A program made the position numbers and the translations under genes. 64,000 bases of DNA. Source: Promethearchaeota archaeon. Lineage in GTDB: Archaea > Asgardarchaeota > Lokiarchaeia > Sigyniarchaeales > SOKP01. Under the pieces are notes generated by a model that was not told where the DNA came from, ran no database searches, and worked only from the letters and a program-made list of their open reading frames with translations. The stretch spans positions 224,001 through 288,000 of the forward strand of contig JAUVNS010000005.1 of assembly GCA_030599585.1 (NCBI GenBank), written 5' to 3'. Shown one piece after another: positions 26,989 to 49,482 of the stretch. Position 1 is the stretch's first letter. Each line of letters begins with the position of its first letter.

Positions 26989-27091
26989 TAGCCCAGAGGG
27001 GAAATGTTCCTTCTAAAAGAAGTTTTAAGAAGATTGAACCCCTGATCACTTGCTTCGCAGGCAAGCGTCTTATCCACTCGACTACTGGGCT
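26989..27091 (-). tRNA. tRNA-Arg(GCG) with 30-nt intron at 58/59 (T-loop), intron 27004-27033
   Basis: Acceptor AGCCCAG/CTGGGCT; anticodon arm CTTGC-CTGCGAA-GCAAG; A20; T-stem AGGGG/CCCCT; BHB with central helix GTTC/GAAC and 3-nt bulges AAT and ATT. Confidence 0.92.
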
Positions 27092-32100: not shown

Positions 32101-32204
32101 TGGGAGAGGGGGGATTCGAACCCCCGGCCACTCGGCCCCCAGCCGATTAGAAATAGTTTGAGAAATCCAAACTAAGGTATCATACCAAGCTAGACCACCC
32201 TCCC
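32101..32204 (-). tRNA. tRNA-Pro(GGG) with 30-nt intron at about 27/28, intron 32147-32176
   Basis: Acceptor GGGAGGG/CTCTCCC; spliced anticodon arm CTCGG-CTGGGGG-CCGAG; GGGGG-TTCGAAT-CCCCC; intron hairpin TAGTTTG/CAAACTA. Confidence 0.88.
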
Positions 32205-40960: not shown

Positions 40961-42562
40961 TTACGAATCATGCTTCAATGGTACTTCGGTTTTTTTTGCT
41001 GAAGATATTTCCAGAGTTAACGAATCATGCTTCAATGGTTCTTTGATTTTTTTTACCGTAGATATTTCAATTGTCGGATTAATGTCTTTCATTAATTCAA
41101 CTTTATTTTTTAATTCGTCTGAAATTATTTTAGTTGTGATACCTTGAGAATAGAGCATTCCTAGCCCGCCCAATATTCCTTGCTTAACTAACCTTCCCAA
41201 GCTTCCCAGCATCCAATTAAATTTCCCAAAAGGGTTAAGATATTCTTTGGCTCTTCTAATTAGCCATCCTTTCAGATAAAAAGCGGCATAAGCTTCCGCT
41301 ACTAATTGAAGAAAATCTTTAGAGGTTAATTCTTCAGTTTTCATCATTGGATGAAACAAATCGTAAAATTTGTAATTGCTTGCGGTTACCATTCCTTTCT
41401 CTTTCATCTCATCATAAAATGGTGTCCCTGGAAAAGCAGTAATAGGTGTAAACTGGACACAGTCTAAATCTAGATCTATTGTAGTTTGAATATTTTGCCT
41501 AACCATTCGTTTGGTTTCGCCAGGAAACCCGATTATAACCCCACCGAAGATGGATATTCCTTTGTCTCGTAAACTTTTTACTACTGTTTTAACCATTGCA
41601 GGCGTAGTGTTCCTCTTATTCATCGCGTCTAAACTCTGTTGATGAACGGATTCAATTCCAAGAAAAACTTGTCTAAAATTGGCTTTATGCAATTTATTGA
41701 TTAAATCTGGGTTATTATATAAAGTATCCACTCTTGATTGGCAAGAAAAGCGCATTTTAGAGTTGACTCCTGATTTAATTAGAGTATCCAATATCTTGTG
41801 CGTTCTTTTTACGTTAATTGTGAAATTATCTTCACAGAAAAAAATAAAATCGTTTTTCCAGTCAACATCGTATACTTCTCTCATTATTCTTGAAATTGAT
41901 TTAGATCTGTATGTAGAACCACCACTTGAATTTCTCCACATTTTTATAATACAGCAGAACTTACAATTGTGCGGACAACCTCTTGAAGTTTCTACTTGGC
42001 GAGTTGTGGTCCCCAGGTATGTGTAAAGCTTTCCTTTCAATAAATCTCTTCTGGGCATTGGAAAATTATCTAAGTTTGGTTCTAACGCTCTTTCAGAAGT
42101 GTGGATAATCTTACCTTCCTTGTTTTTGAATGAAATTCCATCAATTTCTTTAAGAGAAATCTGTTTTTTATTCCCATCAAGATAATCGATAATTTCTTTA
42201 AAAGTATGTTCTCCTTCTCCTCTTACCGTAAAATCTACATAATCATGGTCGGCTACAAATTCTGGTACCAATGTAGGATGATATCCACCTATGATCGTAT
42301 TACAACCGTGCTCTTTCGCCATTTTAGCGACTTCTAAGGCTGAATATATTTGTGGCGTCATGCTTGTGATCGCTACTGTATCGTACCGATTTAGCTCGCT
42401 ACGAAATTTTTTCTCGCGATATTTATCAACCTTGAAATCAAATAATTTTGCGTCATGTTCTGGAACCATCCCAGCTATCGTAATTAAGCTTAATGGAGCT
42501 CCAGTAATAATAGCGTCCATCCCTGATTGCAGACGAGCTGGATTAATATATAAAATTTTCAT
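40961..42562 (-). CDS. cobalamin-binding radical SAM enzyme (class B methylase/BchE-like)
   Basis: B12-binding domain (GGYHPT, RGEGE); TSRGCPHNCKFC; GIES; PGTP. Confidence 0.92.
   Translation of the reverse strand: MKILYINPARLQSGMDAIITGAPLSLITIAGMVPEHDAKLFDFKVDKYREKKFRSELNRYDTVAITSMTPQIYSALEVAKMAKEHGCNTIIGGYHPTLVPEFVADHDYVDFTVRGEGEHTFKEIIDYLDGNKKQISLKEIDGISFKNKEGKIIHTSERALEPNLDNFPMPRRDLLKGKLYTYLGTTTRQVETSRGCPHNCKFCCIIKMWRNSSGGSTYRSKSISRIMREVYDVDWKNDFIFFCEDNFTINVKRTHKILDTLIKSGVNSKMRFSCQSRVDTLYNNPDLINKLHKANFRQVFLGIESVHQQSLDAMNKRNTTPAMVKTVVKSLRDKGISIFGGVIIGFPGETKRMVRQNIQTTIDLDLDCVQFTPITAFPGTPFYDEMKEKGMVTASNYKFYDLFHPMMKTEELTSKDFLQLVAEAYAAFYLKGWLIRRAKEYLNPFGKFNWMLGSLGRLVKQGILGGLGMLYSQGITTKIISDELKNKVELMKDINPTIEISTVKKIKEPLKHDSLTLEISSAKKTEVPLKHDS
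40963..41076 (-). repeat. 57-bp (19-aa) imperfect tandem duplication at the 3' end of the radical SAM gene
   Basis: ACGAATCATGCTTCAATGGT at 40963 and 41020; peptide EIS..KK...PLKHDS occurs twice. Confidence 0.85.
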
Positions 42563-42670
42563 TTTTATTCACATACTTTTCCCAATTATCAAGCTTAACC
42601 TTATCCAAAGTGAACCACGGTGTGGATAAACTAACTTGGGAGAAGAGGTTAAGTGGTAATTCAGTTAGTT
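42563..42670 (-). ncRNA. structured 5' leader, candidate cis-regulatory RNA/riboswitch
   Basis: Four 7-10 bp complementary pairs within ~100 nt, starting at the predicted TSS. Confidence 0.5.
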
Positions 42671-42692
42671 ATTATTAAATAACAATTTATCT

Positions 42693-42700
42693 TATTTAAA
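42693..42700 (-). promoter_or_regulatory. TATA box for the radical SAM gene
   Basis: TTTAAATA about 22 nt upstream of the start of the structured leader. Confidence 0.5.
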
Positions 42701-42875
42701 CTTGTTGAATCTACATAGTATTTGTTTAATCGATATAGCACAAAATCCTAATAGATACTATAATAAAAGAAGGTAATAATTAAAACTAAATTACTTTGAT
42801 TTATATTCCTTTTTTTGATATTATTAAACTATATCCCTCTCCTTATTAAAAAGAATCAACTTCAATTTTTCTTTA

Positions 42876-45069: not shown

Positions 45070-48000
45070 TCAAATCTTTTCGTCTTTCTTTTTTTTAAAT
45101 AAGAGATACCCTAATACCACTAAAGTTAGAATAAGTGGGATCATTATCGTAATCGGGTTTCCTCCGCTAATTTGAAATATATAATACGAGATAGCCGTGA
45201 GCGAAGCAAAGAAAGCGATAACAGAACCATACTGATTTGTGAAATTCTTTAACCTTCGCATCATTATATATACTCTAAAATTCATTTTCTTTATTACCTC
45301 TAACTCTTTGTCATCAAGCATACTCAGAACATCCGGATTCTCGTAATATAAACCGATCAGAGGATCGTATTTCCCTTTCAATTTTCCAGAACTAATTAGA
45401 GAAATTAGGTGTTTCTGAATAAGAGGTTTCTTTATCTTCAATTCGTGCTGTAAAAAACTTAATGTAAGGAATTCATTTGCTACGGCCTTTATTGCCATTT
45501 CCACGTAAGATTTCACAATTAATTCTTCTAAAGTTTTAACCTTCTCTCTTAATGTCTCGTTAAATTCTTTAATGAAACGATCAAAATCGTTTATTATATG
45601 CCTATTTTTGGTTTCAAAATCATTAGAATTTCTCTTAAATATTCTAATTAAATCAGCTATTTCTCGACTGGTTTTTTTAATCTCCTGTTCGATATAAATC
45701 TTTTTTTTATCAACTTTTAAGTATGCTCTCTTATACTGTTCCGTTTCAATATATTCTTCAACCCTGGTTTGTAACGTTCCTAATAATTGACTTAAATGGA
45801 TATTGTTGTTGGAAATCGTTGATATTAACTTACCTCGATTCGTCTCAAACCTCAGAGAATTTATTTTATCATTTATTGCTTGAATTCTATCTTCAATCAT
45901 TGTTTTGATTTTGTTTTTGAGCAAAACTGAGAATTCTCTCAATTCTGTTTCAAATTTCCTCGTTTCATAAGATATGTTTATAATTGATTTCAATTTATTT
46001 TCGATTTTTTCGTCGACTTCCTTTAATCTAATCCTAACATTCTCTTTTCTACTTTCAAGAATAACCTTCATCTCTGTATGAGACCCAGCTCCCTCAACAT
46101 CAGCAGATGTTTTTGTTAATTGATTTTCAATTTCGATTTTTAGCGTATCTAACAAATCGATGATGAATGTTTGTATGTCTTTAAACAAAACCAAGTTTTC
46201 TTTAATATTCAAAATCGCTTTTTCATTATTACTTATAATAGCTTTTAGATTATTAATCAGTTCCATATTTTCTAATCTATTCTCGTCAATATTTAGCTCT
46301 TTTATCTTAGTGTTGTATTGATTGGTAATAGAATCCTTCAAATCAATTAAATCATTAATTCTATTTTGAATTTCTAACAAGTTTACTCCAAGAGTTTTGT
46401 TTTTAATACACGAGTCGTAAAGGGCTAATAATTTTCCTACCGCCTCCTGGGTTTGCTTAATAATTCTATTTTCTGTGAAATTTGTCAATTTTCTATTCTT
46501 ATGATAAGCTTCAGTGTGAACTGTTAGTTCTTTTTTATCTTCAAGTAAATCACCTTGCAATTTAGACACCTCTATCATGTCTCTAATTCTTGGAATTATC
46601 ACTTTACATTTGAGTTTAAGCTTATCTGCAAGTTTTTTTATACTAATTGTATCTGTGTGTTCCTCCTCGCTCATTAATACAATTTCTTGAGAAATTATGT
46701 CATTTACATATTCTTCCTTAAGTTTATCAATTTCTTCAGTAAAGAAAATGTTAAATTTCTCCCATTGAATAATTTTTATCGAACTTTCATCAATGCTTGG
46801 GATAATAGCTTTAAGATTTGATAATTTTTTAGAAAATTTCTTGCTATTTTCGTTTAAATCAATTAGAATTGTATCAAAACCTCTAATAACAATTGGGATT
46901 TTATTTGTTTTGCTTTGATCAATGTTGTTCCTGTAATTTTCTAACTTAATCTTAAAATTTTGGATAGTATCAGAAACAAAATTATCAAAATCTTCAACAC
47001 CTGCTCTATTTCTTTCTTCTATAACTTTTTCTTTTAATAATTGCTCTTGTCCCGCTATAAACTCAATAATATTTTCTTCCAGGCTGTCGAGCTTTTCATT
47101 TATATATTTATAAAGTGGAAATAGTTTCTGTTTAAAAGAAATATTCTTTTTAACCATTGATTTTAAACTTTGAATTTTCTTAGTTTTATCTTTTAGTAGT
47201 ACATCCGCTTCCATCTTAATAATCTTAAAAGCGTCTTGATATTGATTTTGAGAAGTTATATTTTTAACATTCTCTTTTATTTGTAGAATTCCTTCTTGTA
47301 TATTATCCCTAACATTTCCAATCTCTCTATTCAATTCGTGGAAAAACTGGAAACCATTCGTATAATCAGCAAAAATCAAATCAAAGTTTTCTTTAAAATT
47401 AACCCATTTATTTATTATTTTCTTATGGTTCTTCGCGATCTTCTTCTCCTTGGTTGTTATCTGATGCGACACTTTGTAAATAACTGAATCGTATTTGCTT
47501 ACAACCTGAGCTATTTTATTAAACGCATTTATGATAAGTGATAATTTTTCTTCATCGTAACCCTTTTCAAGAACCTCCATAATGTAATTCTTAAAAGAAT
47601 CTATCTCACGATTTACCTGATCTTGAATATCGTATATTTTATTATCTAACTCGCCTAAAATATCGCTAAATTTTTTTAAACTTTCCATCTCTTGAATCTT
47701 TTCAAGGAGGTAATTATTTGCTTCGCCTAAACGCTTTTGCAGTAAAGAATAAGATTTATTCCATTGAGATATTTCAGAACCTAAAGCAGCTTGTAGGTTA
47801 ATGTATATAAGCTCTTGATTAAACGATGTTTCAATGTTTTTATTAAGAAAATCTGCTTCCATTAATGAATCTCGCAATACAAACTTCAACCTTTCTTTAG
47901 CGAAATCAACTTCGTCAATCATAAGATAAGATTCTATTTCTTCCTTTATTTGTGGAATTGTGTTCTTGAGCTTCAAGGTCATATTGTAAATATCATTTTT

Positions 48001-49482
48001 AATTTCCTTCAGTTTAGCTTTTTCTTCGAAAAGTCTTTCACTATTAATTTCTTTATCAGAAATGATTATGTTTTTGTACAAAACATCTAAACAAAAGTAA
48101 AATTTTGTTTTAAATAAATAAGCCTTTTTTGATCTAATCTCTCCTTCAAAAAAATGGTTGCTTATTAAGTCATAGATGATCGGAAAGATTTCTTCTTTTA
48201 ATTTCACGGGTTCCTGTTGGTAGGAACTTTTATATTTTTTGTGTATATCCGAAAGTGAAATGACGCTACTATTACTTAGTTGGCTATAGACTTCTTCGAT
48301 AATTTGCTTTTTACCTTGACTTAAATTTTGTAAATAATCATTAAATTCAGATGAAATATCGATATTCTTTAAAGAAAACATGTAATTGAGGTTAATATAC
48401 AGTACAATCTCTTCTACTCCATGGCTTAACCCAAAAGTAGTCTTTATCTGGTTTAAGTCTATAAAATTGTATGTTTCTAATCGCTTAAATACAACTCTCT
48501 CGATTTCTTCGATAAAACGATTCCAGATAATAGATAGCAAAATTACGAGTTTAGTAACGTTTTTTAACGCGATTAAGTTCCAACTTTCTTTATCTTTCAA
48601 TAATAAGTCTAATTTTTCGGCGATAAAAGAATAGATTCTTGCTGGATTGTAATCTATAAGCCATGAGTATATGTCAAGAAGATTTACGCACCAAAATGTA
48701 GATTCAATATCCCCTCCAATTGAATCTATGACAAAACCTCCATTTGGCTGTTGAAATTGATAGAAATACTGAATTTCCTTATCTTTTACATCTACATCTA
48801 AATCAAAGAATTTCAGACTAAGGAGTTTAAAAATAAAAGATACATCCTTCTTTCTTTCTCTAAGATATTGACGAAATTGCTCTTTGAAAACTCTTACATC
48901 AACACCGATAAGCATAAGACTTTCGACTACATAGTAAAAAGTCTCCCCCAAAGGTCCTTGATTACCAAATTCGCATTGTTTGTCAAGGCAATGTAAGAAT
49001 CCGTTATTTCTTTTATGATCATAAATAAAGTTTTTAACTTTTTCTATAACTATATCTTGGCCTTTAGACGCTAGGTATTGTTGGAGCACACCCAATAACT
49101 CTAAACTTGCTAATGCATAGTATGTAGACCATATATCAGGTGTTTTTAATGAATAAGGCGATGCTTTAAATCCCAATTGATCTTTTTCAATTATCTCAAC
49201 TTCACAATTTTTTACAAATTCTAAGAAAACTTCGGTATTATCGTCCACTTTTTGTTTGATATACTTCCTCAGGAGGAGAAACCAAAAAAGATCCTCTAAA
49301 TTTAAAGACGATTCATTATTTAAGTGTATATTATAATATTGATATAAATCTAAAACTTTATTGTAATTACTTAAGTAGAAATTGCCGATATCCTTTCTAT
49401 TTGCTAAAACAAAAGATTTAAAAGGCTCTTTTTTGAATTCCGTAATGTACGGATATGCTGTCTTGTTCTCTACATTTGTCAA
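45070..49482 (-). CDS. large multidomain protein: prenyltransferase-like repeats, PCI/winged-helix domains, long coiled coil, C-terminal 2 TM
   Basis: STYYALASL, NNGF, QQPNGGF, STFWCV; ISIKKLADKL...SKLQG and LQHELKI...SGKLKGKYD; K/E/I/L heptads; TTG start with GGAG. Confidence 0.7.
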   Translation of the reverse strand: MTNVENKTAYPYITEFKKEPFKSFVLANRKDIGNFYLSNYNKVLDLYQYYNIHLNNESSLNLEDLFWFLLLRKYIKQKVDDNTEVFLEFVKNCEVEIIEKDQLGFKASPYSLKTPDIWSTYYALASLELLGVLQQYLASKGQDIVIEKVKNFIYDHKRNNGFLHCLDKQCEFGNQGPLGETFYYVVESLMLIGVDVRVFKEQFRQYLRERKKDVSFIFKLLSLKFFDLDVDVKDKEIQYFYQFQQPNGGFVIDSIGGDIESTFWCVNLLDIYSWLIDYNPARIYSFIAEKLDLLLKDKESWNLIALKNVTKLVILLSIIWNRFIEEIERVVFKRLETYNFIDLNQIKTTFGLSHGVEEIVLYINLNYMFSLKNIDISSEFNDYLQNLSQGKKQIIEEVYSQLSNSSVISLSDIHKKYKSSYQQEPVKLKEEIFPIIYDLISNHFFEGEIRSKKAYLFKTKFYFCLDVLYKNIIISDKEINSERLFEEKAKLKEIKNDIYNMTLKLKNTIPQIKEEIESYLMIDEVDFAKERLKFVLRDSLMEADFLNKNIETSFNQELIYINLQAALGSEISQWNKSYSLLQKRLGEANNYLLEKIQEMESLKKFSDILGELDNKIYDIQDQVNREIDSFKNYIMEVLEKGYDEEKLSLIINAFNKIAQVVSKYDSVIYKVSHQITTKEKKIAKNHKKIINKWVNFKENFDLIFADYTNGFQFFHELNREIGNVRDNIQEGILQIKENVKNITSQNQYQDAFKIIKMEADVLLKDKTKKIQSLKSMVKKNISFKQKLFPLYKYINEKLDSLEENIIEFIAGQEQLLKEKVIEERNRAGVEDFDNFVSDTIQNFKIKLENYRNNIDQSKTNKIPIVIRGFDTILIDLNENSKKFSKKLSNLKAIIPSIDESSIKIIQWEKFNIFFTEEIDKLKEEYVNDIISQEIVLMSEEEHTDTISIKKLADKLKLKCKVIIPRIRDMIEVSKLQGDLLEDKKELTVHTEAYHKNRKLTNFTENRIIKQTQEAVGKLLALYDSCIKNKTLGVNLLEIQNRINDLIDLKDSITNQYNTKIKELNIDENRLENMELINNLKAIISNNEKAILNIKENLVLFKDIQTFIIDLLDTLKIEIENQLTKTSADVEGAGSHTEMKVILESRKENVRIRLKEVDEKIENKLKSIINISYETRKFETELREFSVLLKNKIKTMIEDRIQAINDKINSLRFETNRGKLISTISNNNIHLSQLLGTLQTRVEEYIETEQYKRAYLKVDKKKIYIEQEIKKTSREIADLIRIFKRNSNDFETKNRHIINDFDRFIKEFNETLREKVKTLEELIVKSYVEMAIKAVANEFLTLSFLQHELKIKKPLIQKHLISLISSGKLKGKYDPLIGLYYENPDVLSMLDDKELEVIKKMNFRVYIMMRRLKNFTNQYGSVIAFFASLTAISYYIFQISGGNPITIMIPLILTLVVLGYLLFKKKKDEKI

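Follow-up and report, generated by a model that had tools for sequence, protein, structure and literature searches.

The gene for a B12-binding radical SAM (rSAM) protein in an Asgard archaeon is preceded by a structured 5' leader that is real, specific to this gene and not previously described, and that contains one conserved hairpin rather than a knot of four helices. The leader lies within a stretch of 64,000 nucleotides that was analysed as a whole and is referred to here as the window. It has the general attributes of a structured cis-regulatory 5' leader: it stands between a promoter and a start codon (the transcript start being predicted from the promoter), its sequence is under selection, and it contains a helix that covaries on the mRNA strand. 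A first-pass annotation, made from the window's letters, had described the same segment as a candidate riboswitch with four crossing helices, P1 to P4, possibly sensing SAM or cobalamin. Of these helices it is P2, the closing stem of the hairpin, that comparison with related genomes bears out.

The source organism belongs to the Loki-type Asgard archaea (Promethearchaeota), and its genome is 4.85 Mb in 52 contigs with 31% G+C; the window covers positions 224001-288000 of contig 9. Among known prokaryotes, Asgard archaea are most closely related to eukaryotes. The literature yielded almost nothing about their post-transcriptional control, and full-text searches found no description of such a cis-regulatory RNA in Asgard archaea. 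The promoter site, a candidate factor, the leader hairpin and the enzyme offer a testable regulatory unit in organisms whose genetics are still out of reach, and they flag the rSAM enzyme as tightly regulated. Were the leader a switch, it would be of a new class; were it a stability or translation element only, it would be an ordinary feature in an unusual lineage.

The radical SAM gene and its promoter

The protein of 533 aa encoded downstream of the leader (Table 1) is closest to BchE and HpnJ. It scores far under every NCBIfam cut-off. A GH4 glycosidase gene lies downstream of the rSAM gene and a Hef-like helicase gene, transcribed divergently, lies upstream; the 313 nt spacer upstream of the rSAM gene holds the TATA box and, in mRNA sense, the strands of P1 to P4. 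Of 42 genomes from the genus, 36 carry an ortholog of the rSAM gene, and many other Promethearchaeota MAGs carry one too. The ortholog sample used here consists of 86 distinct upstream regions, to which 12 more leaders of the window's own type were added from metagenomes.

Elsewhere in the window, at 45070-49482 on the minus strand, a protein of 1470 aa has weak Pfam matches to a prenyltransferase repeat and a PCI domain and is eukaryote-like. Rfam calls tRNAs at 32101-32204 and 27020-27091, both on the minus strand, with 36.8 and 34.6 bits; one of the two calls, with its span of 104 nt, hints at an intron. Run in bacterial mode, ARAGORN reports no tRNA anywhere in the whole window, and no tRNA-like element at the leader.

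The TATA box that the first-pass annotation had placed at 42700-42693 is present, and its position is kept across clades. Two tandem 17-nt repeats (CTATnTnGAnnnAACAA; 42738-42722 and 42718-42702), 20 nt apart, abut it, and this block is kept in about 70 of the 86 ortholog promoters. As judged from the aligned upstream regions, the tandem-repeat promoter motif is the most conserved non-coding element of the locus, ahead of the leader itself. The letters T/AA follow the TATA box at a distance of about 22 nt, a spacing that would put the 5' end of the transcript near 42670. The leader is then about 108 nt long, as had been annotated.

In its own genome the promoter motif, CTATGTAGA(T/A)TCAACAA plus TTTAAATA, has only one other close copy, at G000:C8:203831-203846 on the minus strand (L041). 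It stands before an operon that encodes a membrane protein of 180 aa with a 2TM domain and a PadR-family regulator of 210 aa that bears a zinc ribbon at its C terminus. This PadR protein is a candidate for the factor acting at both promoters, in which case it would control a small regulon that includes the rSAM gene. In several related genomes the promoter portion of the query had matches at second, non-rSAM loci as well.

Table 1. Features of the leader, its promoter and its gene, with positions in the window.
Feature	Position	Strand	Remarks
Upstream copy of 17-nt direct repeat (CTATATCGATTAAACAA)	42722..42738	-	Candidate transcription-factor site
TATA-proximal repeat copy (CTATGTAGATTCAACAA)	42702..42718	-	Possibly includes BRE; nearly invariant in the genus and in more distant orthologs
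TATA box (TTTAAATA)	42693..42700	-	Position relative to the repeat motif constant in all clades
Predicted transcript 5' end and conserved block (AACTAACTGAATT)	42658..42670	-	Includes the P1 5' strand
P2 5' strand (CTTAACCT)	42646..42653	-	Closing stem of the conserved hairpin; pairing and covariation
Pyrimidine tract (CCTCTTCTCCC)	42638..42648	-	5' arm of the inner helix, or alternatively of P4; conserved in the clade
Hairpin interior	42604..42641	-	Inner helix TCC.AAGT / ACTT.GGA (MFE), variable apex, conserved GGTTCAC at 42616-42610
P2 3' strand (AGGTTAAG)	42594..42601	-	Evidence as for the P2 5' strand
Purine tract, P4 3' strand (TTGGGAAAAG)	42576..42585	-	Kept in most clade members; absent in the sister clade
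Probable Shine-Dalgarno element (GTGAAT)	42567..42572	-	At -10..-5; GTGAAT or GTGATT throughout the clade
B12-binding radical SAM gene, 533 aa	40961..42562	-	Downstream of the leader; Pfam B12-binding and Radical_SAM

One conserved hairpin among four complementarities

The leader has 35% G+C and, as the first-pass annotation had remarked, is richer in G+C than its surroundings, four neighbouring spacers having 18-25%. Wherever the coding regions could be compared in register, in 12 of 12 cases, the identity of an ortholog's leader to the window's leader exceeds the identity at four-fold codon sites (for example 0.96 v 0.82, 0.85 v 0.73 and 0.71 v 0.35), and it also exceeds that of the spacer from TATA box to start. 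By this measure the leader behind the conserved promoter is under purifying selection. Leader sequences are nonetheless of sharply different types, even inside the genus. The window's leader occurs once in its own genome, and no extra copies or regulon of the RNA motif were found in that genome or in five others; a 23-nt look-alike in three genomes falls inside a coding region and was set aside as a chance match.

All four complementarities of the earlier description are present. P1 (AACTAACT, 42670-63, with AGTTAGTT, 42636-29) and P2 (CTTAACCT, 42653-46, with AGGTTAAG, 42601-594) have 8 perfect bp each, P3 (TTATCCA, 42629-23, with TGGATAA, 42607-01) has 7 bp, and P4 (CTTCTCCCAA, 42645-36, with TTGGGAAAAG, 42585-76) has 9 of 10 pairs and one C.A. 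Three perfect stems of at least 7 bp in 108 nt are found in about 1% of dinucleotide shuffles, but in 2.6% of the natural 108-nt stretches of the same 64-kb window. The MFE of the window's leader is -20.5 kcal/mol, with z = -0.78 (-0.86 in a second computation), and 45 of 200 shuffles fold as stably, so the fold is no more stable than that of shuffled controls. Among 72 ortholog leaders the mean fold z is -1.2, with 29% under -2. A nested thermodynamic model gives pairing probabilities of 0.85 for P2, 0.12 for P4, 0.02 for P3 and about 0 for P1. The complementarities are real; their significance comes from the comparative data, and for P2 alone, not from the single sequence.

In an alignment of the window's clade (A2, 24 sequences) P2 is paired in 92% of cells. 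The basal pair is G-C in 15 sequences, A-U in 2 and a mismatch in 7, the window having A.C, and three further pairs show single changes that G-U pairing accommodates. A covariance model of the clade, R2, detects the leaders of a sister clade with E-values of 4e-4 to 6e-3. The 5' block TAACTAAATGAATT is retained in these leaders, as is the hairpin in a shortened form, AGCCTA/TAGGCT; the GGG tract, the pyrimidine tract and the 3' strand of P1 are missing. In the joint alignment of the two clades (A3), which was fitted to the model and is to that extent biased towards structure, P2 is 90.5% paired, compared with 13-60% for slid partners. Double-sided changes occur at three of nine P2 pairs. For the structure tested as a whole, covariation scores 0.195 (shuffles 0.124), and none of 500 shuffles attains this value. 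One P2 pair runs through the series U-A, U.G and C-G, which fits an RNA helix on the mRNA strand. The support for P2 comes from few pairs, since most of its columns are invariant within the window's clade. A further model iteration brought in one extra leader, L065, at a marginal 20.3 bits, with a 9-bp equivalent of P2 that includes three G.U. P2 as first annotated is thus borne out, being conserved with compensatory and G-U changes in the clade and the sister clade.

Within the hairpin, the inner helix is 87.5% paired in the clade, where one of its pairs is CG in 9 sequences and UA in 12, and the apical CCAC/GTGG helix is 54% paired. In the MFE fold P2 is extended at its base (AATTA/TAATT and others); this extension is paired, without covariation. 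In the sister clade the leaders L007, L008, L010 and L056 have a conserved run of five T (GGCTCAGTTTTTG or GGCTCAATTTTTA) directly after the shortened hairpin. Hairpin and run together resemble a terminator or attenuator; the run is absent from the window's clade. When an intrinsic terminator was looked for in the window, GCTTGATAATTGGG was found after P2, with no oligo-T run.

What of the other three helices? P1 is 96% paired in the clade, and its pairs are uninformative: five of eight never vary, and none changes on both sides. The block AACTAACTGAATT that contains its 5' strand is invariant in the 24 clade members and is kept in the sister clade without the P1 partner, so its conservation is not owed to P1. 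P3 is 70% paired and its pair 62-82 is broken in 17 of the 24 sequences; it is not a conserved helix as far as the aligned leaders tell. P4 is 69% paired with a constant C.A mismatch, and the sole column of P4 that varies (47) covaries equally with its P4 partner and with its partner in the inner helix of the MFE fold. Because the sister clade keeps P2 without the partner strands of P1 and P4, these two are dispensable where P2 is kept. In the alignments P1 and P4 appear at most as clade-specific additions. P1 and P2 could coexist only as a pseudoknot, and an H-type pseudoknot of the two was looked for; P2 is supported and P1 shows no compensatory change. P4 and P2 are mutually exclusive, and a fold forced to contain P4 has -19.3 kcal/mol, 1.2 kcal/mol above the MFE.

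P4 had been proposed to occlude a purine-rich tract 14-23 nt before the ATG. The tract is at that place (-23..-14 from the ATG at 42562); it is probably not the ribosome-binding site, GTGAAT being the better fit to the 16S rRNA. The 16S rRNA 3' end is GGATCACCTCCT, and GTGAAT matches the GGTGAT core complementary to this tail. For this reason GTGAAT at 42572-42567, and not the GGGAAAAG tract, is probably the Shine-Dalgarno element. In the MFE and centroid folds neither GTGAAT nor the ATG is paired, and the same is true of most ortholog folds; nearly all of the folds predicted leave the ribosome-binding region without pairs. An RNA thermometer that sequesters the Shine-Dalgarno element does not fit this predicted ground state.

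The pyrimidine tract, CCTCTTCTCCC, is similar to the anti-Shine-Dalgarno tail of 16S rRNA, and a similar tract, CTTCTCC, follows the outer stem in distant orthologs; the loose likeness to the 16S 3' tail is the only sign found that the leader mimics another RNA. According to the folding model the tract could, on energetic grounds, toggle between the inside of the hairpin and the purine tract (P4), and the clade alignment gives no covariation support for such a toggle. The apical GGTTCAC (42610-42616) resembles GGATCAC of the 16S tail. Pairing of GGTTCAC with the leader's own GTGAAT (42567-42572), for which 6 bp are possible, is kept as no more than an idea, as the variants in relatives do not compensate.

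Leaders of distant orthologs

Orthologs with 65-70% protein identity have a longer leader of another type. Its plan is a first hairpin, H1, with GAGAA-loop-TTCTC, then an outer stem, a pyrimidine arm and a variable apex. The outer stem occurs as GTGCC/GGCAC, TAGCT/AGGCTA, GTACC/GGTAC and GGAAC/GGTCC, and the pyrimidine 5' arm TCTCCTCTAT is paired to ATAGAGGAGA. The ribosome-binding site is GGTGAAT, AGGGGAT or AGGTAAT at about -16..-9. Start codons in this group (L104-L146) are mostly TTG with a few GTG, compared with ATG and the weaker GTGAAT in the window's clade.

In the distant group of 29 sequences the two-hairpin fold has 83% of its cells paired, against 40-56% when the strands are slid. 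Double-sided changes are seen at ten pairs, and covariation scores 0.235 against 0.158, a level that none of 500 shuffles attains. There are 65 G.U cells to 25 A.C cells, which places the pairing on the mRNA strand. H1 lies about 95-120 nt upstream of the start codon in L104-L146; GAGAA/TTCTC is present in 28 of the 29 sequences and the loop varies freely. In L109 GGAACC/GGTTCC replaces GAGAA/TTCTC and the hairpin is kept. The word TTCTC recurs in the next pyrimidine tract of the distant leaders, which makes an alternative pairing conceivable.

Searched with a model of the distant type, R1, five genomes have a single forward-strand match each, and in all five it lies before the rSAM gene. R1 fails to detect the window's leader (4.7 bits), and the covariance models of the clade find no leader of the distant group. 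By eye, CCTCTTCTCCCAAGTTAGT and GGTTAAGC of the window resemble CTTCTCCTCTATTAGT and GATTAGGC of the distant leaders, a lead rather than a statistical result. Because no covariance model bridges the two leader types, their homology rests on the orthology of the genes, the shared promoter and this likeness by eye. On the sequences compared, a stem in the same position, made of other sequences, appears before the orthologous rSAM gene across Promethearchaeota genomes.

Two further ideas about the leader were rejected. A leader peptide could be read in some distant leaders as ATG/GTG-CTT-(C/T)TT-CTC-CTC-...-TAA; others start with AAG, ATA or GTA, one has TAG, and in the window's clade indels break the sole open frame. 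A C/D-box or K-turn (CTGA...ATGTGA) was dropped because CTGA is not conserved.

Possible functions and relation to known systems

With moderate confidence, we regard the element as a fast-evolving, lineage-specific structured leader of one rSAM mRNA whose P2 hairpin acts in cis after transcription. It follows from the comparisons that the leader RNA folds into one long hairpin closed by P2 and ending in a variable apex, with transcription predicted to start about 22 nt downstream of the TATA box, behind the tandem-repeat factor site. The 5' arm of this hairpin presents the pyrimidine tract that resembles the 16S anti-Shine-Dalgarno tail, and after the hairpin comes an A-rich, unpaired ribosome-binding region (GTGAAT-N4-ATG). 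The hairpin probably sets the translation or the mRNA lifetime of the single rSAM gene in cis. It could do so through a bound protein, or through the pyrimidine tract, which might re-pair from the hairpin interior to the purine tract upstream of the ribosome-binding site, forming P4. The turnover in architecture, the stem-centred conservation and the single copy argue against a fixed ligand pocket and point towards a translation or stability element, or one operated by a protein.

Could the leader exist chiefly to be bound, by an RNA-binding regulator or by the enzyme itself in autoregulation, through its conserved stems or its pyrimidine tract? We think this unlikely, if worth weighing. The letters of the stems are conserved beyond what pairing needs, in GAGAA/TTCTC of the distant group as in the P1 and P2 strands of the window's clade, and single-copy, gene-specific elements are what autoregulatory leaders of the ribosomal-protein type look like. 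However, no conserved RNA-binding gene neighbours the locus, and the one distant leader that exchanges GAGAA/TTCTC for GGAACC/GGTTCC with its hairpin intact suggests that shape counts for more than sequence.

A metabolite riboswitch of a new class, for example for SAM, SAH or a corrinoid, with the P2 hairpin as aptamer and P4 or the pyrimidine tract as expression platform, seems to us unlikely. One might be expected in a conserved structured leader whose gene encodes an enzyme using SAM and cobalamin, and the pyrimidine tract has two mutually exclusive partners of near-equal energy. The class would have to be new, as there is no match to a known family: Rfam 15 gave no family at gathering score for the window and 10 relatives, and for the same sequences cobalamin (RF00174) and the SAM riboswitch classes gave no match even at E up to 10. 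The first-pass annotation, which had recognised no SAM or cobalamin class in the leader, was right on this point, and the negative result extends to all other Rfam families. Its suggestion of a switch sensing SAM or cobalamin is not favoured, in view of the single copy, the conservation in stems and an architecture that differs between species of one genus. A search for a conserved aptamer core found the conserved letters mainly in the stems and variation in loops and apex, unlike such a core. Within the genus the first hairpin is present or absent, the leader ranges from about 84 to 148 nt and the stem sequences change; covariance models do not bridge the clades, and wherever genomes were searched there is one copy per genome, always before the one gene. 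It would similarly be a long shot to see here the first conformational RNA switch in Asgard archaea, whether riboswitch or protein-operated, in which the pyrimidine tract toggles between the hairpin and the purines on the side of the ribosome-binding site. If true, such a toggle would tie synthesis of the rSAM enzyme to a cofactor or product signal.

The inverted repeats might also act in the DNA, as operator half-sites for a repressor binding downstream of the TATA box and the start, which we hold to be very improbable. It is common for archaeal repressors to bind at the start site or downstream of it, and the strands of P1 and P2 share a TAAC/GTTA core and are invariant in sequence within the clade. 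However, other clades keep the stem and change its sequence, the excess of G.U over A.C in the distant group (65 vs 25) and the series from U-A through U.G to C-G in P2 are strand-specific signatures of RNA, and a dimeric factor would not usually have half-sites spaced by 26 and 44 nt. Finally, a pseudoknot made up of all of P1 to P4, whether formed together or in a programmed order, retains hardly any credibility, despite the presence of all four complementarities, the rarity of three perfect stems among shuffles (about 1%) and loop lengths for P1 and P2 (9, 9 and 27 nt) that suit a feasible H-type pseudoknot: P3 is broken at one pair in most of the clade, P1 has no variation that tests it and keeps its 5' strand where the 3' partner is missing, P4 carries its constant C.A and is missing in the sister clade, and the strands P2a, P4a and P1b are one contiguous segment without linkers, so that forming all at once would probably be sterically strained.

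The favoured reading, a cis-acting leader hairpin, can be set beside several known systems. The context is that of cobalamin and SAM riboswitches, in that the gene product uses cobalamin and SAM, whereas the leader lacks a B12 box and is far shorter than a cobalamin aptamer. In crossing, P1 and P2 follow the H-type order of the pseudoknot aptamers preQ1-I and SAM-II; unlike in those, P1 is without comparative support, and no relative scores above 13.4 bits with preQ1, for which the threshold is 39. Leaders that mimic the anti-Shine-Dalgarno sequence, such as riboswitch platforms and the ROSE and fourU thermometers, likewise have a pyrimidine tract like the 16S tail that pairs with purines near the ribosome-binding site. 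Here, in contrast, GTGAAT is unpaired in the predicted ground state, and P4 would cover a tract upstream of it. Autoregulatory leaders of the ribosomal-protein type are also gene-specific and single-copy, with stems conserved in sequence, but the downstream gene in our case encodes an enzyme and not an RNA-binding protein.

There is also a likeness to the orphan structured 5' leaders and riboswitch candidates that have come from surveys of the CMfinder type (PMC5737381, PMC2864571). Common to both are a cis-acting element in the 5' UTR, covarying stems, association with one gene family and the lack of an assigned ligand or function. Differences are that the leader described here is from Asgard archaea, lies outside Rfam 15 and is single-copy, and that its architecture is far less constant than in accepted riboswitch candidates.
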